Below, in pieces: positions 252 to 42,843 of a stretch of 64,000 nucleotides of DNA. Under the pieces are notes generated by a model. It saw only the letters and a list, made by a program, of their open reading frames with translations. It ran no database searches and was not told where the DNA came from. The DNA is from Escherichia phage vB_EcoM-pEK20, in sequence record MZ868638.1; one strand, written 5' to 3'. Numbering within the stretch: the first letter of the stretch is position 1; every line of letters begins with the position of its first letter. The position numbers and the translations under genes were made by a program.

Positions 252-284
252 TTTAGTGTCCTGTGGTTTAGATTACATTATTAT

Positions 285-932
285 TTATAATGCTTTTAAA
301 CTCTCTGCGAGAGCTTTAAATGCTTCATCAGCACTGTTTTTGGTGGTTTCCACCGAATTTTCTGATTCTGATTCTGATATTTGTTTAGGAGTAACCCAAG
401 CATCTGGAGCAGAAGGTCCCCATACGGCATCTACGCCGACGGTTAATTTAAATCCTTCGTTCACGATACGGTACCCTTTATTGGTGTCGGTTAAAGAACC
501 AAGACCACGAGAGGAAACACCTGGAATCCAACCAGCTCGTATATTAGCAGCTAATTTATCGCCGGGACCATGGTCGCCTTCAATAATTCTAGCACGTCCA
601 TATACATCGTTTCCTTTCCACCACATATCTTCAATAATGATAGCGGCTTGCATAGGGTCAACATTTGCACGAGGTGGATGGTTTAATTCTCCAAGGGCTT
701 GTTTGGTTGCGACTTGTTCTTTAATATAGTCACTTACTGCTTTTTCCAAAACGCGTTTAGGATATAAACGTTTATTTCGGTTAACAACCTCTGCCTGAAG
801 AAAAATACCTTCTATATAAAGCCCTGGTTTTAAGCCAGAATCTTTTCCATCATGAGATTCCAACATTGGAACGCCATCAATAATCTCACCGGGTTGACCC
901 CAAGTTTCAATAAGTAACTCGGGTTTATTCAT
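285..932 (-). CDS. 21: prohead core scaffold protein and protease gp21
   Basis: 215 aa, [29 protein letters not shown]...; near-identical to remembered T4 gp21; T4 gene order. Confidence 0.92.
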   Translation of the reverse strand: MNKPELLIETWGQPGEIIDGVPMLESHDGKDSGLKPGLYIEGIFLQAEVVNRNKRLYPKRVLEKAVSDYIKEQVATKQALGELNHPPRANVDPMQAAIIIEDMWWKGNDVYGRARIIEGDHGPGDKLAANIRAGWIPGVSSRGLGSLTDTNKGYRIVNEGFKLTVGVDAVWGPSAPDAWVTPKQISESESENSVETTKNSADEAFKALAESLKAL

Positions 933-1357
933 TAGCTTAATCCTAATGCTTTACGACGTTTAAGAGCCTTTTTACGCTTACGCAAGCCTTTAACTTGGCC
1001 TGAAGGGTTAGCTTTTTTAGCTTTAACGACCTTACGAGCGATTTGTCTACGTTTTGCTTTAGAAAGACCAGTTGTTTGGAACGCGTTACGTTCACGAGTT
1101 TTACGGTCTTTAGTGCGGGTGACTTCACCACGAGAAGAAACATGTTTAACGATAAACTCATTTAACTGTTCTTCATTAATAATGGAAGCCATTGCAACAG
1201 CTAAATCTGTTTCAGTTTCAAGCATGTTCTCGATAATAGTATTTATATCGTCAATATCGAGAGCAGAAGACAATGCATCGATTCGGCCCTGTGCTTCAGG
1301 AATAAGTGCTTCGACATTTTCGAGTACCAATTCATAAGATTCAGGGATAAGATACAT
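932..1357 (-). CDS. 68: prohead core protein gp68
   Basis: 141 aa, same length as T4 gp68; basic C-terminus; position between 67 and 21. Confidence 0.85.
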
Positions 1358-1587
1358 TATTCATCGTCCTCATCATCTTCGTCTTCGTCGTCATCGCCTT
1401 CATCAGCGTCGTCTTCCGAAGCTTTCTTTTCTTCTTCAGGTTCTTCGCCTTCAATCAAAAATTGAGAAGCGATTTCTGCTTTGCGTGCTTCAATCAAACG
1501 AACCGTTTTTTCTGCCATTGCACTTTCAAAAAACTTTCGAGTAGCAACGAGGTCGTTTGATTTAATAGCTTGAATTAAATCGTCCAT
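1357..1587 (-). CDS. 67: prohead core protein gp67
   Basis: 76 aa with acidic C-terminal tail ([18 protein letters not shown]); position between 20 and 68. Confidence 0.85.
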
Positions 1588-3158
1588 TAAAAATCCTCTT
1601 GTTCTTGGTCGGGGTCTTGGAAACGAGCCTCTTTCGACTCTTCTTCAATTTGCTTAGCCTCTTGTTCAATTTCCTCGTCAGACATCTGAAGAATATCTTT
1701 CATAGCTGTTCTGTGAGAAATATATTTACCAATAAATGGTTCGGCCATCTGAAGCATATTAATGCGACGCTCCAGAATCTCAGCATCCTTTAATTCCGAG
1801 AAATAACTATCCCGATGAAATTTTATCTTAATATTATTTATTTCATCATTCCACTCATCTTCTGTAATAATTCCTTTAAGAATTAAATTAGTTTTAAGCG
1901 GGTCTAGGAATATCTCTTCAAATTTATGTTGCAGCTCACGAATAAATTTACCAAATGACAATTCATCTCGTGTAATAGAAGTACCAGCATCAAACTGTAT
2001 ACCACCTTGGTCACTTGGAATACGGGTAATAGGAATACGTAAAGCCATATAAAGCGCATTACGGAACCAACGTACATCTTCCATATTTCCAGTATTATCT
2101 GCACCGGGTAATGTGTCAACTTCTGTTACTGCTTTACCATCACGTCGTTGTAACCAATAATCTTCGGTCATCGACATAATATGCTGCTGGTTTTTAATCT
2201 TGCCTGTAGTAGCATCATATGCAATACGGTTTTTCATCGTATTCATAACATGTTGCATATGTTCTGCTGCTTTTCTTGAAGGCATATTACCTGTATCAAC
2301 GTACCATACACGACGATCTGGAGCACGAGTAATACGATAAATTACAACGGCATCTTCAAGAAGTTTTAATTGGTTCGCCGGCTTAATAGCCCGATGCAAA
2401 TAACCAATGATATTTTTACCACAACAATCAACTAAACCAGAATGGGCATAAACAATCGCGGCTTTAGGGATTTTTATTTTTGTGCCAGCTTCATATATGC
2501 GACCATCACAAGCATAAGATTCGTGTGATGTGTCATAAATGAAATATTCTTTATAACCCTTGACTATTTTAACACCGGCTTCAGTGGTTGTAATAACTTC
2601 ACGGACATATTGAACTTGGCGTGGGTCTAAACGACGAAGCTCTTTAATACCTTCTTTAGGGCGTTTAGGGTCAATAATTTTATGGAAGAAAATTCGAGAA
2701 TCTACGTACCAACGTCTAAAATGGTCTGAACCTTTACGTTGGAAAGATAAATGATTTAACACTTCGTTAAATTCATCCAACATCATTGATTTGATATTTG
2801 GACTAAATTTTGTGTTGTCTAAATTTATAGAAACGACTTCTGTATCATCTTCATATACGATAGCATCGGAAACTATTTCAGAGACCGCGTTATCCACTTC
2901 ATAGTTCGTCATCAAATTTCGATACGTATCGATTAATTCACGGGTTGATTTGAGCCCTGGTTCTTGACTACCGAACATTCTCTGAAACATAGCATTATAT
3001 GTTTGCTGTGCTTCATTTTCAGATACTTCGTATTCTTTAGCGCCGTCGTCTAATTTTGGTGTGGTGATAGATTCTAAATTTTCTTTTTCTTGGTCTTTGT
3101 AATCACGTTCGTCCATTTTTGCCCATGGAGCAAACAAACTTAAGATATTAAATTTCAT
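1587..3158 (-). CDS. 20: portal vertex protein gp20
   Basis: 523 aa; matches remembered T4 gp20 in length and sequence; follows a late promoter. Confidence 0.93.
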
Positions 3159-3186
3159 TGTATTCTCCGAATGGGAATTATAGTTA

Positions 3187-3194
3187 TATTTATA
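3187..3194 (-). promoter_or_regulatory. late promoter TATAAATA upstream of gene 20
   Basis: Plus strand reads tatttata (reverse complement TATAAATA), about 30 nt upstream of the gene 20 start. Confidence 0.75.
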
Positions 3195-3242
3195 TGGACT
3201 TCTCCGTCATCACGGGAAGCTGGGGATTTCTCCCCAACCAGA

Positions 3243-3734
3243 TTATTCCCACCAATCAAGAGCAAGAGTTACTTCGAACGTTTCAATCTCGTTATTAGAA
3301 TCCCAATCAAGAGATACTTCACCAACGTTAGTAGGCCACAAGCCGACAATTTCAACTTCTTTAGTGACCGTTTTAGCATCACGAGCAAATTGACGAACGA
3401 TAGCAGACTTTTTATATTCAGCAGGTTTGCCACCGGTAATTTCATTACCTTGTCCTGCTGCAATACCTTGCCAATCAACAAATTTCTGACGAATGCTATG
3501 AGCATCATCGTTCATTACTGTAATAGTCCAATCATCGAATGTACGATCACCAGCCACGTTAATTTTACGGTTCATATAAGAAACAGGAACCTTTTCAACT
3601 ATCGCAGCAGGAAGAGCCGTAGCACGACACTGGAAGCTAAAGTTTTGCCCAAGATAAGAGATTTCTACTTCGAACAGGTTAGGGCGAGCGAAATCACCAG
3701 ATTCGAAGGCACGAGTTACGTCATCTACAAACAT
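3243..3734 (-). CDS. 19: tail tube protein gp19
   Basis: 163 aa, MFVDDVTRAFESGDFARPNLF...LALDWWE; near-identical to T4 gp19. Confidence 0.95.
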   Translation of the reverse strand: MFVDDVTRAFESGDFARPNLFEVEISYLGQNFSFQCRATALPAAIVEKVPVSYMNRKINVAGDRTFDDWTITVMNDDAHSIRQKFVDWQGIAAGQGNEITGGKPAEYKKSAIVRQFARDAKTVTKEVEIVGLWPTNVGEVSLDWDSNNEIETFEVTLALDWWE

Positions 3735-3806
3735 ATTAGCCTCTGTAGTAATATGGGCCTAGGATTAACCGGATGCCCATAGAATTAATTTTTAAACGAT
3801 ATAGTA

Positions 3807-3814
3807 TATTTATA
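3807..3814 (-). promoter_or_regulatory. late promoter TATAAATA upstream of gene 19
   Basis: Exact TATAAATA on the minus strand in the 18-19 intergenic region. Confidence 0.7.
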
Positions 3815-3815
3815 T

Positions 3816-3833
3816 GGGCTACCGAAATAGCCC
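3816..3833 (-). terminator. stem-loop downstream of gene 18 (GGGCUA-UUUCGG-UAGCCC)
   Basis: 6-bp perfect inverted repeat immediately after the gene 18 stop; followed by A/U-rich sequence rather than a clean U-run. Confidence 0.45.
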
Positions 3834-3846
3834 ATCAGGCGTCTTA

Positions 3847-5829
3847 TTAACCACCTACAGCACCAATTAGTTCGTCGAAATCGGCACCAGTTGCTGTTGC
3901 TACAAAGTTCAATGTAATATAATTTATCGAGCGGGCAGGTTGTAAGTAGAAAGTAGCTACAAATTCATTACGGTCGATAACTGCTGGGGTGTTATTGGTA
4001 GTATCACAAACAACTTTAAAGTTATATACACCACCAAGAGCTTTAATACCCTGTAGATATTGAGAAGTCTCTGTACGGAAAGAAGAACGGGTAAATGCGT
4101 TGTTCAATTCAAACAGGCGATATTTAGATGCTGAACCAATGTTCGTTTTAACCATATTGAACAAACGACGAACGTTAATACGGTCAAATGGTGAAGGAAC
4201 AGAAGTGGCAGTTTTATCACCGTACAGAACATACCCATCACCACCGGTACCAGTGACAGGGTTAATAGCTTCCTGATACAAACGATCACGCTGCGCTTGA
4301 CGAGTTTCAATTGCAAGCTTAATAACGTTAAGAATTTGTCCACGGTTATAACCGGCAGGAGACATCCAAGGCTGAGAAATATTGTCTGTACGAGCACAAA
4401 GTCCAGCAATATCAGCAGCTAACGGAACCCAACGATTCACATCATTATATTTGTCATATTGATATTTATAGTTACCGTCAATAGCCGCGTAAGTAGAACT
4501 TACATTAAAGTTATTATCAGTGTAAGTTCCTGATGCAGTACGCCAATCAACCAGATTATCAACTGCACGATTAACAGGAATACCGACTATAGTTGCACGT
4601 GGTGGTGAGCAAAGAACCAAGCAATCTTGACGAGAATCACCAATTGCTACAACATGTTTCTGAACTGTAGAAGCAACTTCTAAAGATTCACCTGCACAAG
4701 AACCGGCAATAAACAACTGCGCATTAACAGATTCGCGGTCAGCAAACAAATCCCAAGCTTCCATTAAATCACCAGCGTCAACCGTTTCATTAGATGATAA
4801 GCCACCACCCAGTTTGATTACGCCAGAGAAACCTTTTGGCCAACCTTGTGCAGTAGCGAAAATATAATTGCTTGCGCCTTTAGCAAAGAAATCATCAATA
4901 AAGATATTACTACCATAAATATCGCGTTCACCGCGTTTAGTAGAAAGAACTACACTCTGGACTACAGCATCGTTACGACGAACGATAATTGCATATTGGT
5001 CATCAGTTTGTGGGCCATACCCAAATATTGCTTTAGCAGTAGATGCGCGAGTACCACCATCAGGATAAATTTTTAACTGGGCTGAAGCACCTTTGTCGTA
5101 GTCTGCTTTAGATACGATTTCAATTTCGAGCTGGTCGCCAAGTTCACCAGGATAAAGAGCAACTACGCCTGGGACGCCATATTTTTTAATAGATTCTTGG
5201 AAAGTTAGAGAAGTAATAGCTTCTTCAGAAGTTTCAACTTCAGTTAACAGAATACCGGAATCGGTTACGATAGAACCAATTGTAATAACGCCAGAAAGTC
5301 CAGAAGAAGAACTGGCAACTTCGGCGGTCCAGTTAGAACCCAATGCCGGATATTCATTAATTTCTTTTGCACGAGCAATAATTTTACCGGTTGGGATATA
5401 AATGTTAAGAATTTTACCATCGACATCAACTGAAGTGACATAACCATCTGCTTCAACAGTTTCGGTCAAATACTTAACGATAATTTTATCACCGACCGCA
5501 TAGTTACTACCAGCAGCAGAGATTGTGAATTCAATATTGCCTGCTACAGGAGATGAGTTCTTAGCAGTATCACGATCAACTGCGCGTACAACACGAAGGT
5601 CATTACCATATTGAAGGAAGTTCATAGCAGACATGAAATAATCTGCTGTATCCGTATTAGGAGTACCAAACATATCAACTAATGCAACTTCATCAGTGAT
5701 TTGTTTAATCTGGAATGCAGGTCCCCATTGGAATTTTCCAGCCAGGGCAGCAGTACCAGTGGAGTTATTAACTACAGTACTCTGTACGGTAGTTTCTTTG
5801 AGCTCAACGCCCGGAGAGAGAAGTGCCAT
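3847..5829 (-). CDS. 18: tail sheath protein gp18
   Basis: 660 aa, MALLSPGVELKETTVQSTVVNNSTGTAALAGKFQWGPAFQIK...; near-identical to T4 gp18. Confidence 0.95.
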   Translation of the reverse strand: MALLSPGVELKETTVQSTVVNNSTGTAALAGKFQWGPAFQIKQITDEVALVDMFGTPNTDTADYFMSAMNFLQYGNDLRVVRAVDRDTAKNSSPVAGNIEFTISAAGSNYAVGDKIIVKYLTETVEADGYVTSVDVDGKILNIYIPTGKIIARAKEINEYPALGSNWTAEVASSSSGLSGVITIGSIVTDSGILLTEVETSEEAITSLTFQESIKKYGVPGVVALYPGELGDQLEIEIVSKADYDKGASAQLKIYPDGGTRASTAKAIFGYGPQTDDQYAIIVRRNDAVVQSVVLSTKRGERDIYGSNIFIDDFFAKGASNYIFATAQGWPKGFSGVIKLGGGLSSNETVDAGDLMEAWDLFADRESVNAQLFIAGSCAGESLEVASTVQKHVVAIGDSRQDCLVLCSPPRATIVGIPVNRAVDNLVDWRTASGTYTDNNFNVSSTYAAIDGNYKYQYDKYNDVNRWVPLAADIAGLCARTDNISQPWMSPAGYNRGQILNVIKLAIETRQAQRDRLYQEAINPVTGTGGDGYVLYGDKTATSVPSPFDRINVRRLFNMVKTNIGSASKYRLFELNNAFTRSSFRTETSQYLQGIKALGGVYNFKVVCDTTNNTPAVIDRNEFVATFYLQPARSINYITLNFVATATGADFDELIGAVGG

Positions 5830-5856
5830 TTTAATTCCTCTTAATTTGCTTTATTT

Positions 5857-8182
<2,326 letters not shown>

Positions 8183-9007
8183 TTATTGTTTTCTAGGACC
8201 AGGAGGGGTTGGTGGAGTCGGGATTGGAATATCATGAGTATAAGTTTGTTCAACTTCACCATTCCAATCTTGTGCTTCAACGTCTCTCGGTTTAATTTCT
8301 GTATCAACTGATTCAAAAACACTGGCGGCAGTTTGAAGGTCTCGTTCATTAGCATGAAAATCAAGATAAGTCGTTTTAATAAGGCCTTCTGCTGCGCCTA
8401 CCGGAGGATACATCCATCCATTTACTTCAAATGTTAATGACCACTCTAAACGTCGACGGGATAAATTATCACCGTCTATTTGTTCATCCATTGCTGCTGC
8501 CATCCATACGACTTTAATATCCCTTTCAAATGGAATATCCTGCCCATATTGCTCAATCATAGTCGTATTAAAATGCGGCTGAAAATATGGAATAATTTGC
8601 TCAACGATTTGGAACATATCATCTTCATAACGAGTAAAGATGCTCAGTTCAAAAATCATTTTAATTGGTGATGGGTTGTATTGGTCTACAATATCCTTAG
8701 TCGATTTACTCAAAAGAGAGTTATTCAATATATTCGTTTTAAACGTTGGGTTATAAACGAAATCTACCATTTGGAGATTTATACGTGGTAGAATAGTTTC
8801 GACTTTAGCCACATCTTCTTGTGAGTTTATAGAGGTCCATTTATTAAGTTTCATCATAAAGTGCTCTTTAGATGCATACGTAATAGGAACTCTAATTAAT
8901 TTATTGCCTGTAGACAATTGACGGTTAACTTGGATATTTGAAAACAAATCGCCCATCATTGTGATATATCGCCTGAACGACGAGTTGTAAAAATAACCAA
9001 ACATCAT
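8183..9007 (-). CDS. 15: tail sheath stabilizer / tail completion protein gp15
   Basis: 274 aa; gene order between 14 and 16; matches T4 gp15 length. Confidence 0.88.
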   Translation of the reverse strand: MMFGYFYNSSFRRYITMMGDLFSNIQVNRQLSTGNKLIRVPITYASKEHFMMKLNKWTSINSQEDVAKVETILPRINLQMVDFVYNPTFKTNILNNSLLSKSTKDIVDQYNPSPIKMIFELSIFTRYEDDMFQIVEQIIPYFQPHFNTTMIEQYGQDIPFERDIKVVWMAAAMDEQIDGDNLSRRRLEWSLTFEVNGWMYPPVGAAEGLIKTTYLDFHANERDLQTAASVFESVDTEIKPRDVEAQDWNGEVEQTYTHDIPIPTPPTPPGPRKQ

Positions 9008-9056
9008 TTCTCCTAACCGGCCTTTCGACCGGTGTTTGCTTTATCTTATCTATTTA

Positions 9057-9821
9057 TTAATTCATAAACCCATCGTCAAATGGTGAATTTTGTCTACCAC
9101 GGTTGTTAACTACTACATACGGCTCAACGTATTCACTTGCCTCTGAATTGATTTGCTCAACTTCAGAATACTCATCGATATTAATGTCATGGATACCGTC
9201 AAGATTTCTAACAGGGTTAAGTTCCAAGTCACTAAATTCAGGTATATTGATACCTTCATTTTTCTGAAGCACCGGATTGATTTCTTCGCCAGAGTAAATA
9301 AACTTGCCTGCAGTAATTTTACGAATCGCATTTTTACCTACTTGATAGAATGGGTCATATGGTTCAACCCAGTTAATCTCAAACAAACTGTTGTCCATTG
9401 GGAAGTATATTAAATCACCTTCCTTGGGCTCCTGATTGTTGACCTGGTGTTTGAAAAGACCCGGGTTAATAGATAATGTAACTTCGTCTTGAACTTGCAT
9501 TCCGAAGTTGCTGAAGAACGATTTCGCTCCTTCATAACCTTCAAAAGAGTTCAGATATGCAGCAAATTTCCATGCTTTAGTAAATTTATTTTTAAGGTCC
9601 TCACCAAAGATAAGGTCCACGGCAACATATTCACGTGGAACATAAAAACATTCAATACCGCGCATCTGTATGCTTTCTGCCACTAGAACATCGGCTAATG
9701 TCTGACTATTCTCATAATTATTAAAATTGACAAATGGATTGAGGATTTCAGTCTCATTTGTCTGAGAATACCCACCACGATTTTCTAGTTTGGCGAAAAG
9801 ATTTTTATCATAAGTTGCCAT
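9057..9821 (-). CDS. 14: neck protein gp14
   Basis: 254 aa; T4 gene order. Confidence 0.88.
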
Positions 9822-9822
9822 A

Positions 9823-10749
9823 TTAACCTACCAAAATACCTGCAGGAGGGTCCAGTAAATATAACTCTTCTCGTAAAGCTTCTTTCTCTAAACGAGCTTC
9901 TTCAATTAATCGAACACCATCAACAGTGACGCCACCCGGTAACATCATACCTTGATGTTTAGCAAGAATTTGTCCATTAAGCTCTTTAGCTAATGCAGTT
10001 GCATAATCTTTAACCCAGCGGTTGTTATATGCGCCTTGTTTAGTTGCAGGATCTTCACCAACTCGACGTCCGACCAAATTATGGTCTGGATTATCATAAC
10101 GTTCAGAAATAGACCATGAATCACGAGGACCGACCTGACCGTACCCTACTGTATTTCCTACCATCTTATGGGTCTCGATATAAGAGCGAACATATGATTC
10201 AACGATAATGACATCTTTCTGTCTAAAGTTACCCATTACTTTTAATTGCTCGTTTGCAGAGTTAAACCAAAAATCTGGAAGAGGAGCAATCATATCTTGA
10301 AGCATACCCATATAAGATACTAATTGAGAATAATACCCGAGGTCAGCGCCAAAAGCGTTCGGGCCGTAGAATTTACCACAATTACTACCCATACCACCTG
10401 AAACACCGGCCATTCCTAAAAGGAAATCAGTGAACCATGGATAAGTTGCATTACCATCCATTGAAGTAATAGAGCCAACATTTGTTCTTATAATTCTTGT
10501 TACAGCAAATACGTTAGAACCACGCATATCAAATACGCCGTGACGGTATTTTTCTTCGTCATCAACAAAAAATACATGGAAACCTTTATTCAACCCGTCA
10601 AAATGGTATTCGCCATAAAGTTCTAACGCTCGTGAAATACAATCATAAATTTGGTCTGTAGTTAATTCAACATTTACAATAGGAGCGCCTAAACGACGTA
10701 ATATTACATCCTTTAATTCTTTAGGGTTTTGTGCATTATAACCTGACAT
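9823..10749 (-). CDS. 13: neck protein gp13
   Basis: 308 aa; T4 gene order and length. Confidence 0.88.
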
Positions 10750-10761
10750 ATAAATCCTTTA

Positions 10762-10775
10762 GGGCCCGAAGGCCC
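10762..10775 (-). other. UUCG-tetraloop stem-loop (GGGCC-UUCG-GGCCC) between wac and gene 13
   Basis: Perfect 5-bp GC stem with UUCG loop on the minus-strand transcript, directly 5' of the gene 13 ribosome binding site; no U-tract follows. Confidence 0.55.
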
Positions 10776-10781
10776 TTTTCA

Positions 10782-12230
10782 TTAAGCTGTAGGAAGTTCA
10801 ACCCATGCACCATCTTTGCGAACATAGAATTTACCGTCTGAAGGAGCATCTTCAATATATCCAGCGTCCTTAAGAGTTTGGATTTCAGCTTCTGCAGCGG
10901 CCAAATCAGTTTCAAGAGTAGCAATTCTAGAAGTTAAACCATTAATTGTCGTATCATGACTTTTAACTGTAGGCAATATACCGCGTTCTTCAACAGTCGA
11001 ACCATTTGGGTTGGTGCCATTTATAAGAGTATTTAATGTGTTTACAGAACCCTTAATTCCTGTGGAATTAGTCCCAACATCAGTTTGAATGTTCTGAATG
11101 TCATTACTCATCCCACTGATAGTTCCTTCAAGCTCTCGAGTACGATAAAGCAAAGAGCCGTCTGGTTCCGGTTTCCCACCTGAAGCGTCAACACCAACTA
11201 CGTTATTTAACCATGACACATTAAAACGCAATCCTGACGAAGAATCAGAGCCGACAACAGTATTCAATGCTCCGATAGCATCAGTATTGAGTTTAATACG
11301 TCCTTGGATTGTAGTAGGCAAATCATCGGCGCCAATGGCAGTTTCTACTGTAGTCAAACGAGGTTTAATACCACCAGATTGATTGAGCTCAAGATTAATG
11401 TCGTTTATTGCTGAACTATTCGCATTAGTTGTAGTAATAATAGAAGTCGTATTAGGATACCCAATAGACTGTTTAATGCCATCCAAGTCAGCATTTTGAC
11501 GCGACAAAGTTAAATCAATACCGGAAAGACGACTAAACACTGGAGTAGTGAAAGAAGTGCGAGGCCCCATTTCTTCGCGCAAGTGTTCAACTTCAACAGT
11601 TAAAGAGCCGACGTCAGAATCAGCAAATTTAGTTTCCAAATCAGTTAATCGAACACCGTGGTCAACAATTACGGAGCTATTAGTCATAATACGGCGTTTC
11701 ATACCAGTGCTATCATTTCCTGGAGTAGGAACCCCATTAATATCTTGACCGGTATATTGTCCTAATTCATTTTTAATCCAAAGCAGGTCGTTACGAACCG
11801 TTCTATAAACTGAATCTGTTTCCTGATTATAAACACCAATATCGTCAGTATTCGCATCAATATGTTCATTCAAATCATTCAATTCACTGGCATGGGTTTG
11901 AACTGTGACTTTAATGACATCGATATCTTGGGTGTTCTGGCCTATCTGTGCAAGAGCATCAACATCCCCAGAAACATCTAAAATACCTTGAATAGCTTTG
12001 ATATCTTCATTGGCCGTATTCAAAGAAGATGCTATAGTTTTAATATTAACATCTAACGCTTCTACGTTACGTTGAACTTCAACAATAGGACGGTTCATTA
12101 CACCTTCAGAACCGTATTTTGTGTCAGCACCTGTTATTTCTTCATCGTTTTTAATCCATTCAATACGACTCTGACCCGCGTCTGGTGGGCCGTCAACATA
12201 TGGTAAATCTACCAGAGTTATATCAGTCAT
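10782..12230 (-). CDS. wac: fibritin (whisker antigen control, neck whiskers)
   Basis: 482 aa; coiled-coil heptads; C-terminal foldon GYIEDAPSDGKFYVRKDGAWVELPTA. Confidence 0.93.
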   Translation of the reverse strand: MTDITLVDLPYVDGPPDAGQSRIEWIKNDEEITGADTKYGSEGVMNRPIVEVQRNVEALDVNIKTIASSLNTANEDIKAIQGILDVSGDVDALAQIGQNTQDIDVIKVTVQTHASELNDLNEHIDANTDDIGVYNQETDSVYRTVRNDLLWIKNELGQYTGQDINGVPTPGNDSTGMKRRIMTNSSVIVDHGVRLTDLETKFADSDVGSLTVEVEHLREEMGPRTSFTTPVFSRLSGIDLTLSRQNADLDGIKQSIGYPNTTSIITTTNANSSAINDINLELNQSGGIKPRLTTVETAIGADDLPTTIQGRIKLNTDAIGALNTVVGSDSSSGLRFNVSWLNNVVGVDASGGKPEPDGSLLYRTRELEGTISGMSNDIQNIQTDVGTNSTGIKGSVNTLNTLINGTNPNGSTVEERGILPTVKSHDTTINGLTSRIATLETDLAAAEAEIQTLKDAGYIEDAPSDGKFYVRKDGAWVELPTA

Positions 12231-13813
12231 TATTTTACCTTAATGATATAGTTTAAAGAAATATTCCATGGGCGAGTTTCATTTCCAATTAATTCTGGAC
12301 GATTCAGGGTATATTTAGAGTTACGCTGAGACGCTGGATCAATTTCATATCCATCGTTAGTAAAATACGAACGGTTATCCCAGTCAAGTCCTTTACGAGT
12401 ACCAACAAAGTTTGAACGACGAGTATTACCGAATGCTCCTGCATCGTCATGTTCACCAAAACCGCCAGCATGCTTATGATATGACATCTGTTGTTTTTGC
12501 ACCTCACCAACATATCCACCGGTACAACCTACCGCCAGACGAGGCTTACCGAATTGGTCATTACCATTAACATTAGGGTTAGTTAAATGGTTACCACGAC
12601 CTGAGCCGCGAACAAATAATCCACGCATATCGGGCAAGCCTGGGTTAGAAGAACTACCACCATATCGTGTCCCAATTCTGGAAGCATATACCGGACATTC
12701 TGAAGCAGAAACGGTCCCACCGTGACAGAAACGCCAGTCCGAACTCGGCAAACTATCTGCAGCCCACATTGTAATAGCGCCAACTGGAAGAATTCGGTCT
12801 AATTCATTTTGAGTCACAATACGATTGCCTTGAATATAACCACCGGTCATATTGACATTACCCGTTATATTAGCACCACCAGAACCAACCGTCAACGTAT
12901 TATTAATGCGAAGAGTGCCATTAATAGTTTGACCGCCTCGTTGGTGGATAACATCAGCATTCCAAGCAAGGGCAGAAGAACCATCACCACCTGATTGGCT
13001 ACCCGCTTGTGTAGTTAAACGAACAACTCCACGTAAAGAAGTTGTAGCCCCACGCCCGTTTAATGTTGCGCCGGTCACTACAACTGAAGAGTTGTTACTA
13101 TTTACTTCAGTCTGTGTCCCTAGTTTAACGACACCTTTATTAGTTTCTGATGCTACTGAATTCATAAAGGTATAAGGTGAAATTGCATAGCCTTCACGCA
13201 GGGTGCCTTGTTGTGCTTGTGCAACTGTAGCTAAACGAACAACACCTGTAATAGATTCGGTGGCGTCACTATTATTTGGAGCAATTTGCGAAATAAGTTT
13301 AATTGCTAATTGTTGCGTTTTTAACGGAGTCATTGCCGTTGTATCGTCAGAACCAGCTAATGCCGCAGCAGAAGTTGAAATTTTAATTACACCATTTGTT
13401 GCTTCTGTTGATACTTTTGTCTGGAATACATTGTCTATTTTTTGATTCAATTTAAGCGGAGTAATTGATGCATCGTCAATAGCTCCGGCTACTGCTTCAT
13501 CTTCAGTAGCATAACGAGTTAAACCATATTGAGTTTCGGTTGCATTAGGATATTGTAGACGAGCATTCAGTGATGCCGGAGTAACAGCTTTACTATTATC
13601 TAATCCATCAATAACTTCTTGTGGAGTGGCTATTTGAATAATTCCAGGTGTAGTAGTTGTTGCTTCCGGTACGCCATTAACACCTGAAGGAGAAATAGCA
13701 GCTAATGCGGCTTGGACATTAGTGACTGTATCTGGAAAATTCGACCCAGTAGGGTCGAATTCAACGTAAATAGATTCATTTGAAACGTGTTGGTATGTAT
13801 TGTTATTACTCAT
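12230..13813 (-). CDS. 12: short tail fiber protein gp12
   Basis: 527 aa, [27 protein letters not shown]...[11 protein letters not shown]; near-identical to T4 gp12. Confidence 0.95.
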
Positions 13814-14469
13814 GAGGCTCTCACAAAGTGGTAGAAAACGGTAGGAGTATCATGGTTATCAAGAGTAACCGTTTGGGCACCTAATAAATTCCATGTTCCG
13901 TATCCGGATTTTGCTTCAGACAAAATTTCTTGCGAAATTGTTACACCAAACGAAGCATATGTTGGCAACACATGACGTTGGTTATCTAAATATGTCACCT
14001 GAAGTTTATTACCTTCGGATGGATGGTCTTTATAAGAAGAAATAGCGATTTGATTAGCAATGGCTTCTTGTAAAGCTATACGAACTTGTGCCGTTAATTC
14101 GTTATCAGTCATACCGATTGTTGCTTTAACAGCAAGTCCAAATACGTTAATAACGACTGGCGTTCCAGTGGTCAAAGTATCGTCGAGAACATCACCAGAA
14201 AAAGTCCAATAATCAACTTGTGCTGTACCTTCAGGCGATACGCCTGAAGTGTTTGTGACAACAGTACCAATATCAGCTCGTGCCATATTATGGACATCAT
14301 TTATTGCAGATTCTACGTTAGCATCATAAAAACCGCGAGCTAACTGAGAAATAGTCACGGAACCTACAGCTTGGTTGTTTAAAACATCAATTTGAGCTGG
14401 ATTTTTTCTGTAATTCAAAAAATCAGCATGACGGGAAATAACTCCCGCCTTTGTATTAAGTACAGTCAT
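13810..14469 (-). CDS. 11: baseplate wedge subunit and tail pin gp11
   Basis: Start set at [12 protein letters not shown] (ATG sharing a base with the gene 10 stop, TAATG); 219 aa as in T4 gp11. Confidence 0.9.
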
Positions 14470-16274
14470 TATGCAATCCTTACCCAACGGTATACAGTTA
14501 TAGATGGCTGAATATTAGTTATAGAACGCGCTGGAACATGAGATCCATTAGTCTTTGCATGGTCTTCACGATATTTAGTGTAAATAGGACCTTCTTCATC
14601 CGGGTCATATTGGCAACCGCCTATAATTACTGTACCATTATCATCAGAAATAAGAACCTTTTCGTCGGTTTGTGTAGCTGGTAAATCAGCATTTTCTAAT
14701 GTGATGGTTGTTACACCAACGGTACCACCTGCGGTATGAGTAGGGTTACCATTGACGTCAAGGTCATTATTATTTAATGCAAAATTAGGATCGGATGCGT
14801 CGTCATTCCAACCTGCTAATACTTTGCCTTGTCCCCAAATTTTCCACAAACCAAAACCTAAATAAGTTGCCGGATTATTAGGGTTAACCGCATTTTCGTA
14901 AATAGTCCCGACAGGATAAATTGTATCAAATATTGCTGAGATAGTCGAGAATTCGCGTTCATACTTAGGAACAGGTTCTACATTAGGCCAACCAATTTTA
15001 TCGAAATCGGTTAATGCAACGTCACCAGTAATTTCAATGTTAGACCCTTGAGAAACATATTTCTCATCAGCGACATCAAGGATTTCGTCCATTTCAAGAA
15101 GAGTTCCTAAATCGTTATTAAACCATGTGATGGTAATAATGTCTTGGTCTTCAAATTGACGGTCAAACAGAATTGCGCTAGGGATATTATCAGTATATTC
15201 AATCGCATAATCTGTATATGATTGAGTCCATGTCCCACCGAGATTAGCGCATGACTCTTCAGAATCAGCATCCACACCTTCACAACGGAAAATAGGAGTT
15301 CCAACAGTACCAGCTAATTCTTGGAGAATACCATTGAAGCGAACTTCTAACGAATTAGGGTTAGGTGGTTCCGTAGGATTAATACCAAATGCTGTAAATG
15401 GAATAGACCGGAACGTACTCAAATCAGTGACGTAAATACTTCCGTCAATAGACTTTTTAGCAGTCAATTTACTATCTAAAATGCGAACTTGGCGACGAGT
15501 ATATGAACTACGCCACTGAGAAACACCATCTAAGAATGTCTCAATTTGTACAGTGTCGCCAACATTACATGGTTGGCGTAATCTAATATTAAATCCATCA
15601 AGTGCAACCAGTTCACCAGGATTAGCGCCTGGAGAACCAAAATCACTGTTATCACTGAATACATCACCATAGTACAATTCGTTGCCACGATGTTTTACGC
15701 GAATGTTGTTAACGTTATAAGAGGTCCCGTTAAAAACATCCATGAAATCGGTCTGACCTTGGGTTTCAACCAGATATTCTCTACGAGCAACATTACTAAT
15801 GTCAGAGCTAACTATTTTATCAATTTGTTTGTTCTTGATGTATTCCCAACGTCCAGGAGCACAATAAACTAATTCTAAATCAGAGAACTGAACGTTAATT
15901 TCTACTGGAGATGAAGAACCTTTAATCGTGTCCCCGTTTGCCGGAATTAAAGTAACAGGGTTAATGTTCCAAGTTGCAAATACGTCACGAGCACGAATAA
16001 CTTTATTATAGTCTGCAATTGTCCCTTTAGGAAGATTTACCGAAACTCGCCCAGAAGTAGTATTAATTGCATAAGATTTACCCCAAGCAGCCTTAAGATT
16101 AAGACCATCAGCCGCATCATAAGTCTTCCATGCACCAGCTGCATAAGGAACTTCACCATCACCTAATTCATAATAGATTTCGTCAAAGTTCTCATTTATT
16201 TTTTCACCACCTCGACGAAGGTAATCGCCTTGTCCGTCATCAACGACGTTACCAATTTTAATATTTTGTTTCAT
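14469..16274 (-). CDS. 10: baseplate wedge subunit and tail pin gp10
   Basis: 601 aa, [44 protein letters not shown]...; T4 gp10 homolog. Confidence 0.93.
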
Positions 16275-17146
16275 TATTGAGCGACCCCAATTTTTTGAGT
16301 TGAGATAATTTTAACTGCTGAACGTAATCCAATAATATCGGATGTAATCGTCATAGTAGCAAAGTTGTTAATAATACTAAAGCTAATATTAGCAATCTCG
16401 TCGGTTTCATCTACATTACCAACTCGCATTACTGCAAATTCGGTAGAAAGAACTTCTGAGTTAATTGTATCTATTAGAATATTTATTTCACATGTTTTTA
16501 TTTTTCTACCGTCAGCGGATTGACATGTAACAAGCAATTTAGCCATGTTATAATCTGTGCGATAAAACAGAGGAATAGAAACTGTGTTTCCTGTAAGACT
16601 CCAAGTCCCATCAACAGGAGATTCTTTCTGCCCAAACATGCTATCAGTAGAATAATTCCATACTGAAGTCTGCCCATTAAGTTCAACACAACGAAGAACA
16701 ACATGAGTATAAGGGGTGGAAATAACAAGATTATTAAGAACACCTTTAATCGAACCATCGGTTACTTGGATACTTAAAGGATTGTTAACAGAAATAGACC
16801 CATTAGAGTTTATGAATTCTACAGAGTCACCTAATTCAGGACGGTCAATAATAACAATCACACCACCGTCAGAAGCATCAATATCATGCATAGTGCCTGG
16901 TTTAATAGGAGTTTGATAATCGACCGCCTTTCCTTTTTGATAATAACCTGTGGCATGAATAGTTTGACCTGTAGGTCCGGTTCCATCTGCTACGGCCATT
17001 TTACGTTGATCGCCAAATGCATTGTAAATAGCGTTGATATCGTCATTTATTTTATTACCACCGTCGAATAAGATATCACCTGTTGAGGCATTACCAATTT
17101 CGCCGGTATCGATTAATTGTTTAGGAGTTTGCTTAAAAAATGCCAT
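16274..17146 (-). CDS. 9: baseplate wedge / long tail fiber socket protein gp9
   Basis: 290 aa, MAFFKQTPKQLIDTGEIGNASTGDILFDGGNKIN...; T4 gp9 homolog. Confidence 0.92.
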   Translation of the reverse strand: MAFFKQTPKQLIDTGEIGNASTGDILFDGGNKINDDINAIYNAFGDQRKMAVADGTGPTGQTIHATGYYQKGKAVDYQTPIKPGTMHDIDASDGGVIVIIDRPELGDSVEFINSNGSISVNNPLSIQVTDGSIKGVLNNLVISTPYTHVVLRCVELNGQTSVWNYSTDSMFGQKESPVDGTWSLTGNTVSIPLFYRTDYNMAKLLVTCQSADGRKIKTCEINILIDTINSEVLSTEFAVMRVGNVDETDEIANISFSIINNFATMTITSDIIGLRSAVKIISTQKIGVAQ

Positions 17147-17178
17147 AATTCTGCCTTTTGTTGTCCGATATTATATTC

Positions 17179-17186
17179 TATTTATA
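17179..17186 (-). promoter_or_regulatory. late promoter TATAAATA upstream of gene 9
   Basis: Exact TATAAATA on the minus strand about 33 nt upstream of the gene 9 ATG. Confidence 0.75.
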
Positions 17187-29993: not shown

Positions 29994-30281
29994 ATGAAAA
30001 CCTATAAAGAATTTATATCACCTGTTGCTAACGTTTCTACTCTGACTGAAGCAACCCTTACTTCCGAAGTTATTAAAGCAAACAAAGGCCGTGAGGGTAA
30101 ACCAATGATTAGTCTAGCTGACGGCGAAGAAGTAAAAGGTACTGTTTACTTAGGAGACGGGTGGTCCGCTAAGAAAGATGGCGCTACTATTGTTATCTCT
30201 CCGGCTGAAGAGACTGCACTGTTTAAAGCTAAGCACATTTCTGTAGCTCAGCTTAAAATTATTGCAAAAACTCTTCTGTAA
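29994..30281 (+). CDS. ipI: internal protein I (capsid-packaged, injected; anti-restriction in T4)
   Basis: 95 aa; N-terminal capsid targeting sequence MKTYKEFI...TLTE with a gp21-type L-x-E cleavage site; position next to 57B as in T4. Confidence 0.8.
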   Translation: MKTYKEFISPVANVSTLTEATLTSEVIKANKGREGKPMISLADGEEVKGTVYLGDGWSAKKDGATIVISPAEETALFKAKHISVAQLKIIAKTLL

Positions 30282-31788: not shown

Positions 31789-31863
31789 GGCCCTGTAGCT
31801 CAATGGGAGAGCTGTCAGCTCATAACTGATAGGTAGCTGGATCGAAACCAGCCAGGGTCACCA
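31789..31863 (+). tRNA. tRNA with CAU anticodon (Met or lysidine-modified Ile type), CCA encoded
   Basis: Hand-folded cloverleaf: acceptor GGCCCTG/CAGGGTC, D-arm GCTC-AATGGGA-GAGC, anticodon arm GTCAG-CTCATAA-CTGAT, T-arm GCTGG-ATCGAAA-CCAGC. Confidence 0.75.
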
Positions 31864-31961: not shown

Positions 31962-32306
31962 ATGAAAGGCAATATTTATCTGGTAGTTCATGACTTAACG
32001 TTTTATTTTAACGAACGTGAAACAGTTATTTCCGATAGGTTAATTAATTCGCTGTATCAGCATGCTGATTATGTCTATTTTCAAAATGAATTCGGACATT
32101 GGAAGTTTCTTAAAAACCGTTCCGGGTTAACTAGTTTTGAATACTTTGACCGTAAAGACCTTTTAAACGAAATTCCATTACAACATAGGTTCCAGAAACG
32201 CGAATCACTATACTATTGTCGTCATATACCAAATGCTGAATGTGTTGATGAAGTAATTAATCTATGGCGTAGACGTAGAGAACAAATTGATGATATGTCA
32301 AAATAA
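31962..32306 (+). CDS. hypothetical protein (114 aa) downstream of the tRNA pair
   Basis: ATG at 31962 after GAGG; the track ORF start at 31914 would overlap tRNA-Arg. Confidence 0.6.
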   Translation: MKGNIYLVVHDLTFYFNERETVISDRLINSLYQHADYVYFQNEFGHWKFLKNRSGLTSFEYFDRKDLLNEIPLQHRFQKRESLYYCRHIPNAECVDEVINLWRRRREQIDDMSK

Positions 32307-32608
32307 GAAGCCGGGTCGCTACCGGCAAGTCGTCGGACTGATGTTCCCTGAGTAAGGACTGGTCTTAATAAATCTTTATGATTTGTTAATATCCCCTTAC
32401 ATCACAGCAGAAACGGCGCAAAGAATTATCGATTCGAGGAAATATCTTTGCCGTAAGCCGAGTAGCGTTTTTGACGGAACGTTCGGATATGGTCGAGATA
32501 TGGCCTTTTAAAAATATTGAGTAGCGTCAACTGCTTAATAACCGGGTTCGAATCCCGGCGTTTCGTACAAACACTTGCCTTAGTAGGTGGAAACCCCGAC
32601 AAGGTATA
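32307..32608 (+). ncRNA. ORF-free structured region, possible small stable RNA(s) with a tRNA-like T-arm
   Basis: About 300 nt with no ORF; CCGGG-TTCGAAT-CCCGG T-arm-like element at 32542-32558; repeated GAGTAGCG motif; ends at an intrinsic terminator. Confidence 0.4.
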
Positions 32609-32609
32609 T

Positions 32610-32638
32610 AGCCCCTTCCGAAAGGTTGGGGCTTTTTT
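32610..32638 (+). terminator. rho-independent terminator (AGCCCC...GGGGCU + U6)
   Basis: GC stem with inner CC-GAAA-GG, followed by TTTTTT. Confidence 0.8.
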
Positions 32639-32639
32639 G

Positions 32640-32647
32640 TATAAATA
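32640..32647 (+). promoter_or_regulatory. late promoter TATAAATA upstream of the 208-aa internal-protein-like gene
   Basis: Exact TATAAATA 35 nt upstream of the ATG at 32683. Confidence 0.65.
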
Positions 32648-32682
32648 TAGTAAACAATAAACCTACTTTCTAAGGACCATCA

Positions 32683-33309
32683 ATGTATACTTTTAATGAA
32701 TTTTTAGCCGAAACGGAAGTAATCACCGAAGCCGGTGTACGTATGACAAAAGAGAAATGGCAAGCTGCTTACGATGCTATTTCTGGTACAAAAACTAGTA
32801 CAGAGTTTTTCAAAAACGTTCAAGCCATGTATGGTATCGACACTTCCAGCCAAAAAGAATATTACAGAGCTTCTAAAGCATTCAAAGATATTGTTAGTGG
32901 CGGTGTTTCTGCTAAATCGGGTTCGCCTAAAGTAAAACCTGCTCCTACCGTTCCTAAACCTGCGACCCCTAAAGCAATAGCAAAACCTGAGCCTAAGCCG
33001 GAAGTAAAAGCAACTCCTAAAGCTCCTGCTCTTAAGTTTGATACTTCTAGCCTGGAAAAAAAATATAAACAACTATCTTCGCTTGTTCGTGATATTGAAT
33101 CCGATACATCTTCACTCGTTCGTGAATTCAACAGTCTTCGTAATGGCCAACATATCAACAACCTTGATACCCCAGACCTTTATCGTCTTTATTTGACTAT
33201 CGAAGGTTTGAAGTATACTCAACCACTTCACGATGCGATTAAAGAAAAACTTCGTCAGGCAGGTCGTTTGGCTGCTGACGCTGCTCAGTATGCAAAAACT
33301 CGTAAGTAA
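32683..33309 (+). CDS. internal-protein-like protein with capsid targeting sequence (208 aa)
   Basis: N-terminus MYTFNEFLAETEVITEA resembles the T4 CTS (MKTYQEFIAE) with L-x-E/I-x-E sites; Pro/Lys/Ala-rich linker; late promoter upstream. Confidence 0.65.
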   Translation: MYTFNEFLAETEVITEAGVRMTKEKWQAAYDAISGTKTSTEFFKNVQAMYGIDTSSQKEYYRASKAFKDIVSGGVSAKSGSPKVKPAPTVPKPATPKAIAKPEPKPEVKATPKAPALKFDTSSLEKKYKQLSSLVRDIESDTSSLVREFNSLRNGQHINNLDTPDLYRLYLTIEGLKYTQPLHDAIKEKLRQAGRLAADAAQYAKTRK

Positions 33310-33312
33310 AGA

Positions 33313-33332
33313 ATGGGGACTTCGGTCCCCAT
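33313..33332 (+). other. UUCG-tetraloop hairpin (AUGGGGAC-UUCG-GUCCCCAU) followed by UAGGGGGU
   Basis: 8-bp perfect stem immediately after the stop of the 208-aa gene; no U-tract. Confidence 0.55.
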
Positions 33333-33361
33333 TAGGGGGTCTATAACTTACTGAAAAAGTT

Positions 33362-33390
33362 GTTTACTTCTTCCCTAGATGTGTTACTAT
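33362..33390 (+). promoter_or_regulatory. early promoter GTTTAC-N17-TACTAT
   Basis: Matches the repeated early-promoter pattern in this window. Confidence 0.55.
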
Positions 33391-33418: not shown

Positions 33419-33922
33419 ATGAGTCTTTATACCGAACTGAATAAAAAATCTGAAGAATCTGCTGAAACTATTTTTAAAAACGTGCAAAAGCGTATTTTAG
33501 AAAAGATGTATAACACTGCAGCTAAAGGTGAAAAATCTTGCCGGTTTCCGATGAGGTGTTCTTCTGATTTATGCGCAAATACTATTGAATGGCTGGAAAG
33601 TGAAGGTCTTACGGTAGAGAAAAACCCGGCGACTTCTATTGACAGCGAATCATATATTAGTATTTCTTGGGATAAATCAAGGGTAGAAGAGAAAGATGGT
33701 GATTGGGTTGTAGATGTTAAAACTTCTGATGGTGGACGTTCTGTTGAAGTTTCAGCTGTAGTTAAAGGTACCCACGAACAAAGGACTTGGGGTTGGGGTG
33801 GTGAAGAAAAAGAAATTGTTCTTAGTGTGATTGCCAGGTCAACCAGTAATAAAATTGCACAAAGCATCATTGACGCTGCAATTGCTGAAGCAGAAAAAAT
33901 TTGCAAAATTAAAAATAAATGA
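33419..33922 (+). CDS. hypothetical protein (167 aa)
   Basis: ORF with GAGG ribosome binding site downstream of an early promoter. Confidence 0.6.
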   Translation: MSLYTELNKKSEESAETIFKNVQKRILEKMYNTAAKGEKSCRFPMRCSSDLCANTIEWLESEGLTVEKNPATSIDSESYISISWDKSRVEEKDGDWVVDVKTSDGGRSVEVSAVVKGTHEQRTWGWGGEEKEIVLSVIARSTSNKIAQSIIDAAIAEAEKICKIKNK

Positions 33923-40774: not shown

Positions 40775-41263
40775 ATGAATATATTTGAAATGCTTCGTAA
40801 TGACGAAGGTCTTAGACTGACTTTATACAAAGACACTGAAGGCTTTTGGACGATTGGCATAGGCCATTTAGTAACAAAGAACCCGTCTTTAGCCGTAGCT
40901 AAAGCTGAACTTGACAGAATGATCGGACGTAAATGCAACGGTACAATTACCCTTGATGAGGCTGAAAAGTTATTTAATGAAGACGTTGATAAAGCTGTTC
41001 GCGGAATCTTGGGTAATGCTAAACTTAAACCGGTATATGATTCTTTAGATGCAGTTCGTCGATGTGCATTGGTCAATATGGTCTTCCAAATGGGTGTAGC
41101 AGGCGTCGCTGGTTTTACTAATTCTCTTCGTATGCTTCAACAGAAACGTTGGGACGAAGCGGCAGTAAATCTAGCCCAATCTAAATGGTATCGTCAGACA
41201 CCTAATCGCGCGAAACGCGTAATCTCAACATTTAAAACAGGAACTTGGAAAGCGTATATATGA
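40775..41263 (+). CDS. e: endolysin (T4 lysozyme e)
   Basis: [32 protein letters not shown]...; near-identical to T4 lysozyme, catalytic E11/D20/T26 context conserved. Confidence 0.95.
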
Positions 41264-41541
41264 AAACATATAGTGAATTTTTATCAGAATCTATTCTTAA
41301 CGAAGCTACTGACACATTTGCAACTAAGCTAGGTGCAGCTTTGGTTGAAGCTGAAAGTTTATTAGCACGTATTTCTGAACTTGCTAGTAAGATAGATACT
41401 CGCAAATTTGAGCGCACCAGTGATATCGTTAAGCTTGAAGCCTTGTTGCGTATGTGCGATAAACCGGAAGAAATCGCTAAGAACGGCTCGCTGATGAAAC
41501 AACGTCTTGAAAAATATATTTCAGGCGCTTCAGAAAAATAG
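41260..41541 (+). CDS. internal protein (ipII/ipIII-like) with capsid targeting sequence
   Basis: [16 protein letters not shown]... CTS with L-x-E sites; position between e and denV as in T4; ATGA overlap with e. Confidence 0.7.
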
Positions 41542-42199: not shown

Positions 42200-42514
42200 A
42201 TGAAAACCTATAAAGAATTTATTGCAGAATCCGCCAACCAACGCGTTGAAGGTGGTTATATTTGGATTGAACAAGTTGAGCCACCGAGCCGCACTTCTAC
42301 AGGTAAATGGAAAATTACTGTTGATGGTCCTGGTGGTAAACGTAGGACTCTTAAAGAAATTAATGGGTACTATGAAGAAGCTCTTTCGGATGCAGGAACT
42401 TACATGATGCAAATCATGATTAAAAACCCTGAAAACCGTTTTGCAGCTAAAGTCTTCCGCCGTATTGGTAATAAACTTTATGATGCATATTCTAAAAACT
42501 TCCCTAAAGAATAA
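42200..42514 (+). CDS. internal-protein-like protein with CTS (104 aa)
   Basis: N-terminus MKTYKEFIAE. Confidence 0.7.
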   Translation: MKTYKEFIAESANQRVEGGYIWIEQVEPPSRTSTGKWKITVDGPGGKRRTLKEINGYYEEALSDAGTYMMQIMIKNPENRFAAKVFRRIGNKLYDAYSKNFPKE

Positions 42515-42540: not shown

Positions 42541-42843
42541 ATGAAAACATATCAAGAATTTATTACTGAAGCGCGAGTGAGTGCAGGTAAATTAGAAGCC
42601 GCTATAAATAAAAAGGCCCATTCATTTCATGATTTGTCCGATAAAGACCGTAAGAAACTTGTAAGCCTTTATATTGACAAAGAGCGTATTCTCGCTCTTC
42701 CTGGCGCTAATGAAGGTAAACAGGCCAAGCCTTTGAATGCCGTCGAAAAGAAAATTGATAACTTTGCTTCTAAATTCGGTATGTCTATGGATGACCTTCA
42801 GCAAGCGGCTATCGAAGCAGCTAAAGTAATTAAAGGTAAATAA
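42541..42843 (+). CDS. internal-protein-like protein with CTS (100 aa)
   Basis: N-terminus MKTYQEFITEA. Confidence 0.7.
   Translation: MKTYQEFITEARVSAGKLEAAINKKAHSFHDLSDKDRKKLVSLYIDKERILALPGANEGKQAKPLNAVEKKIDNFASKFGMSMDDLQQAAIEAAKVIKGK

Follow-up and report, generated by a model that had tools for sequence, protein, structure and literature searches.

Within a 64,000-nucleotide (nt) stretch of Escherichia phage vB_EcoM-pEK20 (MZ868638.1; the whole of this stretch is referred to as the window), a gene located between the transfer RNA (tRNA)/rnaC block and e.8 is best explained as encoding a T4-type internal head protein (Ip) of an unnamed family, an overall reading that is probably correct. 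The coding sequence (CDS) lies at 32683..33309 on the plus strand, starts with ATG and encodes 208 amino acids (aa), at the place and length that a preliminary description of this DNA had given; the protein starts with MYTFNEFLAETEVITEA (the translation begins MYTFNEFLAETEVITEAGVRM), and homologues in 138 phage records back the reading frame. The gene belongs to PHROG 2280, a family labelled 'unknown function'. That the protein is packaged and carries a capsid targeting sequence (CTS) is very probable. The further step, in which it acts as an injected inhibitor of a DNA-targeting defence, is proposed by analogy and more tentatively, with somewhat less than an even chance of being right.

The N-terminus has the features of a capsid-targeting-type propeptide. 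Codons 1–16 (32683..32730, +) encode MYTFNEFLAE/TEVITE/A, which contains two sites of the type recognised by the gp21 prohead protease, L-A-E10 followed by T and I-T-E16 followed by A; the T4 IPI propeptide ends with a site identical to the second. In the T4 CTS, mapping has tied targeting to an aromatic residue at position 4 and Phe at position 7, with positions 8 and 10 serving in processing (PMC9026906); all four are kept in the candidate as F4, F7, L8 and E10. A CTS-like pattern (M-x-[TS]-[YFW]-x-[ED]-[FYW]), tested at the 541 Met positions with at least 50 codons downstream in six frames, was matched five times in the window, against 0.08 matches expected. The other four matches are IPI (29994), the IPII homologue (42541) and two Ip-like open reading frames (ORFs) at 41260 and 42200, the IPI homologue occupying 29994–30281 (Pfam IPI_T4, E = 1e-49).

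The leader is conserved in a family alignment of 15 members (27–100% identity), 14 of which include the N-terminus. All 14 have an aromatic residue (F/Y) at position 4, F (once I) at position 7 and a second site that reads [LIV]-x-E-[A/S], with Glu16 nearly invariant. As the first gp21 site is kept usually but not always, maturation is expected after Glu16. Across genera, conservation of the leader and of the Glu16 site contrasts with variation in residues 17–20 and in the linker. The enzyme expected to remove the propeptide, the gp21 prohead protease, is encoded at 285..932 on the minus strand (Pfam Peptidase_S77, E = 2.9e-107). The CTS variant with L-x-E/I-x-E sites reported earlier is therefore present, and these patterns support a true leader of the capsid-targeting type, conserved in the family and furnished with gp21-type cleavage motifs.

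Evidence for packaging comes from an ortholog at the same locus, MAR005P1_00015 of vB_Eco_mar005P1 (LR027390.1), which is 99.0% identical and is described in its GenBank note as a 'confirmed structural protein by MS' (mass spectrometry). Virions of vB_Eco_mar005P1 purified on caesium chloride (CsCl) gave just five proteins by MS (Michniewski et al. 2019, PMC6563131), namely the tail sheath, a prohead core protein, the major capsid protein, the Alt ADP-ribosyltransferase and the 'hypothetical protein' MAR005P1_00015 (PMC6563131), and a place among so few proteins suggests a high copy number. Presence in the virion had been set beforehand as a refutation test, and the ortholog was found there. 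The 2019 paper reported the protein only as 'hypothetical' or 'structural', with its CTS, cleavage sites and Ip nature unremarked (PMC6563131), and a literature search by locus tags found only that paper. The protein had been called novel, which was overstated, as its family, PHROG 2280, occurs in approximately 300 phages and a member had already been recorded in virions in 2019; what stands is that the family is unnamed and functionally unstudied. CTS-led internal proteins are a well-known class, and the assignment would not surprise a T4 specialist, but this particular family is unnamed and unannotated and its literature trace is one line of a 2019 proteomics table.

The gene is also organised as its own late unit. 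A T4-type late promoter motif, TATAAATA, is located at 32640..32647 (+), an exact match that leaves 35 nt to the ATG, and a Shine-Dalgarno sequence, AAGGA, can be read at 32672..32676 (+), 6 nt ahead of the start codon. Directly before the promoter is an intrinsic terminator (32610..32638, +), consisting of a hairpin at 32610–32633 (−16 kcal/mol, z = −2.7) and a T6 run at 32633–32638, the end of which is 1 nt from the start of TATAAATA. The hairpin was missed by a simple terminator scanner because its stem has an internal loop, and it is the predicted terminator that closes the upstream tRNA/rnaD/rnaC unit. Beyond the gene, 3 nt past the stop codon, lies a UUCG-tetraloop hairpin with no U-run (33312..33333, +; −15.5 kcal/mol), which is probably the 3′ end or a stability element of the late mRNA.

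Taken alone, the octamer TATAAATA shows only a weak excess in the window (15 copies observed against 8.0 ± 3.1 expected). It is also found upstream of the orthologs of JS98 (Dhakavirus), PG7 (Karamvirus) and fHe-Yen9-01 (Tegunavirus), at distances of 28, 27 and 30 nt respectively, and in all three it is preceded by a hairpin, with the flanking sequence diverged. One-mismatch versions of the motif are present at the CIP9 variant and the RB69-type alleles that are described below. As the late motif follows a terminator and an early-type promoter lies beyond the gene, the arrangement is that of a single-gene late cassette between early units. The promoter and the terminator had both been proposed in the preliminary description and are borne out at the sequence level, and the late-type cassette is strongly supported by the motif and its conservation, both read from sequence.

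AlphaFold2, run with the family alignment, gave a model with a mean predicted local distance difference test score (pLDDT) of 75, in which three parts follow the leader. Residues 17–73 (32731..32901, +) form a small four-helix N-domain with a pLDDT of 81–89 over residues 23–72 and helices at 23–31, 39–50 and 57–72. This domain is present in every sequence of the family alignment and in the CIP9 variant, although alignment with the RB69-type allele was limited to the last third of the domain, and its identity is 84% to JS98 and 46% to PG7. Residues 74–118 (32902..33036, +) form a Pro/Lys/Ala-rich linker, recognised as such in the preliminary description and predicted to be disordered (pLDDT < 50). 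The linker can be compared with the SPKK tails of histone H1: its 45 residues include 10 Lys, no Arg and three S/T-P-K-x motifs, with an isoelectric point (pI) of 10.4, but its length varies across the family and it is short in the RB69-type allele. Residues 119–208 (33037..33306, +) form a conserved three-helix bundle (pLDDT 89–95 over 122–206; helices at 122–153, 164–177 and 180–206) with 77% identity to JS98 and 64% to fHe-Yen9-01, and extra [LIV]-x-E motifs are found within this C-terminal domain at residues 146–148 and 186–188. The predicted mature form (17–208) has 192 aa, a mass of 21.2 kDa and a pI of 9.8, with 25 Lys and 9 Arg.

Searches with the protein returned its own family. Pfam and NCBIfam gave no real family; two matches, to SIX1_SD (E = 0.1, sub-threshold) and to a TonB proline-rich spacer on the linker (E = 0.003), were set aside as compositional. 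A sequence-profile search of PDB gave nothing below E = 0.05, and a Foldseek search against BFVD found family members only. Structure prediction and profile searches had been proposed as checks on the earlier idea of an injected effector; the prediction produced a helical fold, and the searches revealed no relative outside the family in Pfam/NCBIfam, PDB or BFVD.

T4 IPIII (Pfam PF26861, PHROG 5341) is among the closest known systems. Like the candidate it has a CTS followed by a gp21 site and is packaged, and both share a K-[DE]-x-W motif just past the leader. Mature T4 IPIII has 183 aa, a mass of 20.4 kDa and a pI of 9.65, so that the earlier remark that the candidate is much larger than IPI is true, but in mature size and charge it almost coincides with IPIII. 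The candidate differs in architecture, with a helical N-domain, a disordered Pro/Lys linker and a helical bundle, and in locus, which is e–denV for IPIII and rnaC–e.8 for the candidate. A further difference is that the target of IPIII, GmrSD of ECOR17, is known. A diverged IPIII was considered and rejected: there is no PF26861 match at E ≤ 1, the hhalign profile-profile alignment with the IPIII family covers only residues 1–28 and stops there (E = 7.9e-5), and BLASTP found no further IPIII similarity beyond the leader. No IPIII-type gene was found among the five CTS-bearing ORFs of the window (no PHROG 5341 match), which makes the candidate the largest small Ip-type protein of the window, nor was one found in RB69 between vs.5 and gene 2, an interval that spans both T4 ip loci.

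T4 IPI and its mature form IPI* (Pfam PF11634) share with the candidate a CTS-type leader that ends in I-T-E/A, and IPI is made late and packaged. IPI* is a 76-aa GmrSD inhibitor with an alpha/beta fold (PMC3012670), whilst the predicted mature candidate has 192 aa and is all-helical with a disordered linker. Membership of the IPI family was rejected on three grounds: no Pfam match, an all-helical predicted fold and no similarity outside the leader. Bas37_0260 is similar to the candidate in being recognised only by its N-terminal signal and in being unrelated to IPI–III, a likeness by description; it is encoded at the classical ipI locus and has a demonstrated function, and the candidate is encoded elsewhere. 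Ip4–Ip13 map to the ipI locus, unlike the candidate. The gene is outside both T4 ip loci, in line with the preliminary description, which placed it apart from IPI.

Other counterparts are found within PHROG 2280. RB69ORF149c/148c and the intact 187-aa relatives (Bas46_0240 and Bas36_0244) occupy the same locus, belong to the same PHROG and follow the same plan of a CTS (MKTYAEFLTE...PSE/A), an N-domain, a linker and a helical C-terminus. They differ in their upstream octamer, GATAAATA or AATAAATA as opposed to the perfect consensus of the candidate, and in their linker, which is short and weakly basic as opposed to the Lys-rich tract. The allele of RB69 itself, which starts with MKTYAEFLTEAAKLPSE/A, was assigned to PHROG 2280 with E = 1e-35 and shares 29% identity with the window protein; it is frameshifted in the RB69 record, where ORF149c and ORF148c are the two halves of one CTS-bearing gene (L003, RB69 NC_004928, 11429–11991, minus strand). 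The idea that RB69 carries the same gene with a frameshift was rejected, as this is a different, 29%-identical allele.

The PHROG 2280 family as a whole covers approximately 300 phage genomes from at least six Tevenvirinae genera. The 138 records mentioned above, found by tblastn, contain the type present in the phage HX01 and its relatives, all annotated as 'hypothetical'; the genera assigned from individual records are Mosigvirus, Dhakavirus, Karamvirus, Tegunavirus and Kanagawavirus, and matches also occur in phages of Serratia, Kosakonia, Klebsiella and Erwinia. The intact 187-aa RB69-type allele is found in 165 further records at 90–99% identity, including Mosigvirus (Bas46) and Tequatrovirus (Bas36). 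It is 94–98% identical across these two genera, which implies cassette exchange between them. An exhaustive HMMER search of 1.84 billion representatives gave 13 clusters only, with none long and well aligned outside the family of approximately 200 aa; the sole large match (P0028, 2,963 aa) covers residues 28–88 only, with E = 2.4e-4.

Wherever it was checked, the gene is placed between the tRNA/rnaC block and e.8. T4 has only approximately 285 bp at the rnaC–e.8 site and lacks the gene. With the gene absent from T4 and 29%-identical alleles present within one genus, the locus is, by these comparisons, polymorphic and accessory. A different kind of change is seen in Kanagawavirus CIP9 (L010 2501–3127) and in P0025, which keep the leader, N-domain and linker (CIP9 at 41% identity over residues 1–118) and have a C-terminal domain of approximately 90 aa that is unrelated to that of the window protein and has no PHROG or Pfam match. 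The CIP9-type variant represents a domain swap inside the family. In Bas46, Bas36 and fHe-Yen9-01 a second CTS-bearing paralogue adjoins the PHROG 2280 gene (Bas46_0241, L012 1914–2378; Bas36_0245, L013 902–1375; fHe-Yen9-01 gp153, L009 3080–3616), so the tRNA–e.8 junction can carry tandem Ip-like genes. The leaders in this paralogue family, which is related to P0027, are MKSYAEFLTE..., MKSYTQFLNEAVLNEA... and MLEYSEFLKE.... Given the replacement of alleles and domains and the adjoining paralogue, the site behaves like a third ip locus.

A working model can be drawn from these features. The gene would be transcribed on its own from the late promoter, with a predicted timing alongside the head genes. 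The sequence M-Y-T-F-N-E-F-L-A-E, with its kept determinants, would serve as the CTS and bind the gp22/gp21 scaffolding core during prohead formation. The gp21 protease would then cut at the predicted site after Glu16 (I-T-E/A), and possibly after Glu10 too, leaving a 192-aa product that would stay with the DNA and be ejected with it as other Ips are. The expected N-terminus is AGVRMTKEKW, at a mass of 21,210 Da, for the cut after Glu16 and TEVITEAG, at 21,883 Da, for the cut after Glu10. In the host, the protein may block a nuclease that attacks sugar-modified hydroxymethylcytosine (hmC) DNA, for example of the type IV GmrSD or McrBC kind, with the C-terminal helical bundle as the putative specificity module and the Lys/Pro-rich linker keeping the protein on DNA.

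The role of injected inhibitor is favoured because of the precedent from other Ips. The T4 proteins Ip1, Ip2 and Ip3 are inhibitors of GmrSD type IV nucleases, each of a different one (Silas et al. 2025, PMC12373910), McrBC is inhibited by Bas37_0260, another protein with a CTS (HIDEN-SEQ preprint, bioRxiv 2025.11.20.689424), and reviews describe Ips as diverse defence proteins with just the CTS in common (PMC3012670). A broader hypothesis, which we consider rather doubtful, is that the tRNA/rnaC–e.8 junction is a third, unrecognised Tevenvirinae Ip locus of modular injected effectors, each made up of a CTS, an N-domain, a Pro/Lys linker and an exchangeable C-terminal specificity domain, often with a second CTS-bearing paralogue beside it. 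Defences beyond the GmrSD subtypes of Ip1–3, for example nucleases that act on RB69-like arabinosyl-hmC DNA, would be countered by the C-terminal domains.

Several points count against this interpretation as a packaged, injected inhibitor. Position 2 of the leader is Tyr and not the canonical Lys, and the MS evidence for the virion comes from a 99%-identical ortholog and not from this exact phage. Injection and a host target rest on precedent. The divergence of the orthologs is ordinary: the protein is 69% identical to that of JS98, compared with 72% for e.6 and 50% for trna.2. There is thus no accelerated divergence relative to the flanking genes and no strong arms-race signature, and variation in the family proceeds via allele and domain replacement and not via rapid point evolution. 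Lastly, a basic protein with H1-like S/TPKx motifs fits a purely DNA-associated role equally well.

This last point leads to the alternative that survives best, although it is unlikely, in which the product is a purely structural, DNA-associated internal protein that is packaged by its CTS, neutralises DNA charge or aids head assembly and has no host target. IPIII provides the model, as it assists head assembly and its mutants have a reduced burst and form polyheads (PMC9026906), and the candidate equals IPIII in size and charge; no IPIII-type gene was found among the CTS-bearing ORFs of the window or in the RB69 interval from vs.5 to gene 2. The mature protein is basic, rich in Lys over Arg (25 to 9) and has an H1-like, Lys-rich linker, and in T4 heads the DNA phosphates are contacted only by Lys residues of internal proteins (PMC3012670). 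The protein is abundant enough to be among the five detected by MS, and its orthologs are moderately conserved and not hypervariable. However, the linker of the RB69-type allele is short and weakly basic, so that conservation within the family does not extend to a Lys-rich tract for DNA binding, and the gene is wholly absent from T4, which does without it. In addition, a true IPIII homolog occurs alongside a PHROG 2280 member in fHe-Yen9-01, so that the candidate is not a simple IPIII replacement, and since IPIII itself is also a GmrSD inhibitor, structural and effector roles are not mutually exclusive.

It is considerably less probable that the protein is a scaffolding-core accessory of the gp67/gp68 type that is largely degraded by gp21, the MS signal being a residual fragment. 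The helical, coiled-coil-like prediction and the [LIV]-x-E motifs at 146–148 and 186–188 are compatible with this explanation, and the MS analysis of virions that revealed the ortholog also picked up a prohead core protein, so that core remnants are visible by that method. These internal motifs, however, are inside confidently folded helices, and the gene lies in the accessory tRNA–e region, is absent from T4 and is allele-swapped between close relatives, unlike core morphogenetic genes. Moreover, the window already has gp67 and gp68 genes at the customary site (932–1587, minus strand): gp67 at 1357–1587 (Pfam GP67) and, beside gp21, a gp68-sized ORF at 932–1357 between gp21 and gp67. Identity of the candidate with either protein was rejected on account of these genuine copies and of the lack of a GP67 Pfam match.

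A merely coincidental CTS resemblance in a late cytoplasmic protein with no specific packaging, for which the departure at position 2 and the use of an ortholog for the virion data could be cited, is extremely improbable, as that ortholog is one of five proteins in CsCl-purified virions, the leader and Glu16 are kept across genera while residues 17–20 and the linker vary, and in the window only Ip genes carry the motif.

The surroundings of the gene are those of an RB69-like phage. Over the surrounding 1.1 kb the sequence matches two RB69-like members of Mosigvirus (Tevenvirinae), with 100% identity to Escherichia phage HY126 and 99.9% to HX01. The local gene order is as in T4 (2, 3, 1, 57A, 57B, ipI, trna.4–.2, tRNAs, rnaD, rnaC, e.8/e.6/e.5). 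Homologues of rnaD (species 2) and rnaC (species 1), with more than 90% identity to T4, are located at 32300–32605 (+), where Rfam gave no matching family, and the homology to T4 rnaC runs out at approximately 32605. An HX01 CDS, D299_gp042 (47 aa, equivalent to 32517–32660 of the window), overlies rnaC together with the terminator and probably represents a false gene call. The HX01 record leaves the tRNAs unannotated and places a 75-nt minus-strand 'CDS', D299_gp040, over the tRNA at 31789–31863 (+). ARAGORN identifies this tRNA as tRNA-Met (CAT), whilst its homologue in Bas46 is annotated as a tRNA-Ile that reads ATA, which implies a lysidine-modified CAU anticodon.

On the other side of the gene, an early-promoter-like GTTTAC-17-TACTAT element at 33362–33390 (+), presumably a T4 early-type promoter, precedes the next ORF (33419–33922, +). 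This ORF encodes 167 aa and its two halves match different PHROGs (18312 and 8232); HX01 annotates just a 101-aa CDS at its position, and close relatives apparently differ in how this gene is fused or split.

Elsewhere in the window, TATAAATA also occurs at 282–289 on the minus strand, at the 3′ end of gene 21 (stop codon at 285–287), the position of the gene 22 late promoter in T4. Minus-strand late-promoter motifs cluster over 282–17186, in keeping with the head and baseplate genes of that interval. A three-gene cluster of CTS-bearing ORFs is made up of 41260–41541 (93 aa, PHROG 3499, internal head protein), 42200–42514 and 42541–42843 (the IPII homologue). The second of these (plus strand, 104 aa; PHROG 3966, 'unknown function') is preceded by a strong early-type promoter, starts with the near-perfect CTS MKTYKEFIAE and is a further unannotated Ip candidate.

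All T-even internal proteins characterised so far (Ip1, Ip2, Ip3 and Bas37_0260) are specific inhibitors of type IV restriction, and proteins delivered with the DNA act ahead of any phage gene expression. The PHROG 2280 family is widespread, including in the Mosigvirus, Dhakavirus, Karamvirus and Tequatrovirus phages that are considered as therapeutic candidates, and is annotated as 'hypothetical' everywhere, so that its recognition as an Ip family would provide a concrete candidate for host-range determinants. A third ip locus would be added to the genome map of T4-like phages, and a natural modular carrier with a leading CTS and an interchangeable C-terminal domain would be relevant to the engineering of T4 for protein delivery.

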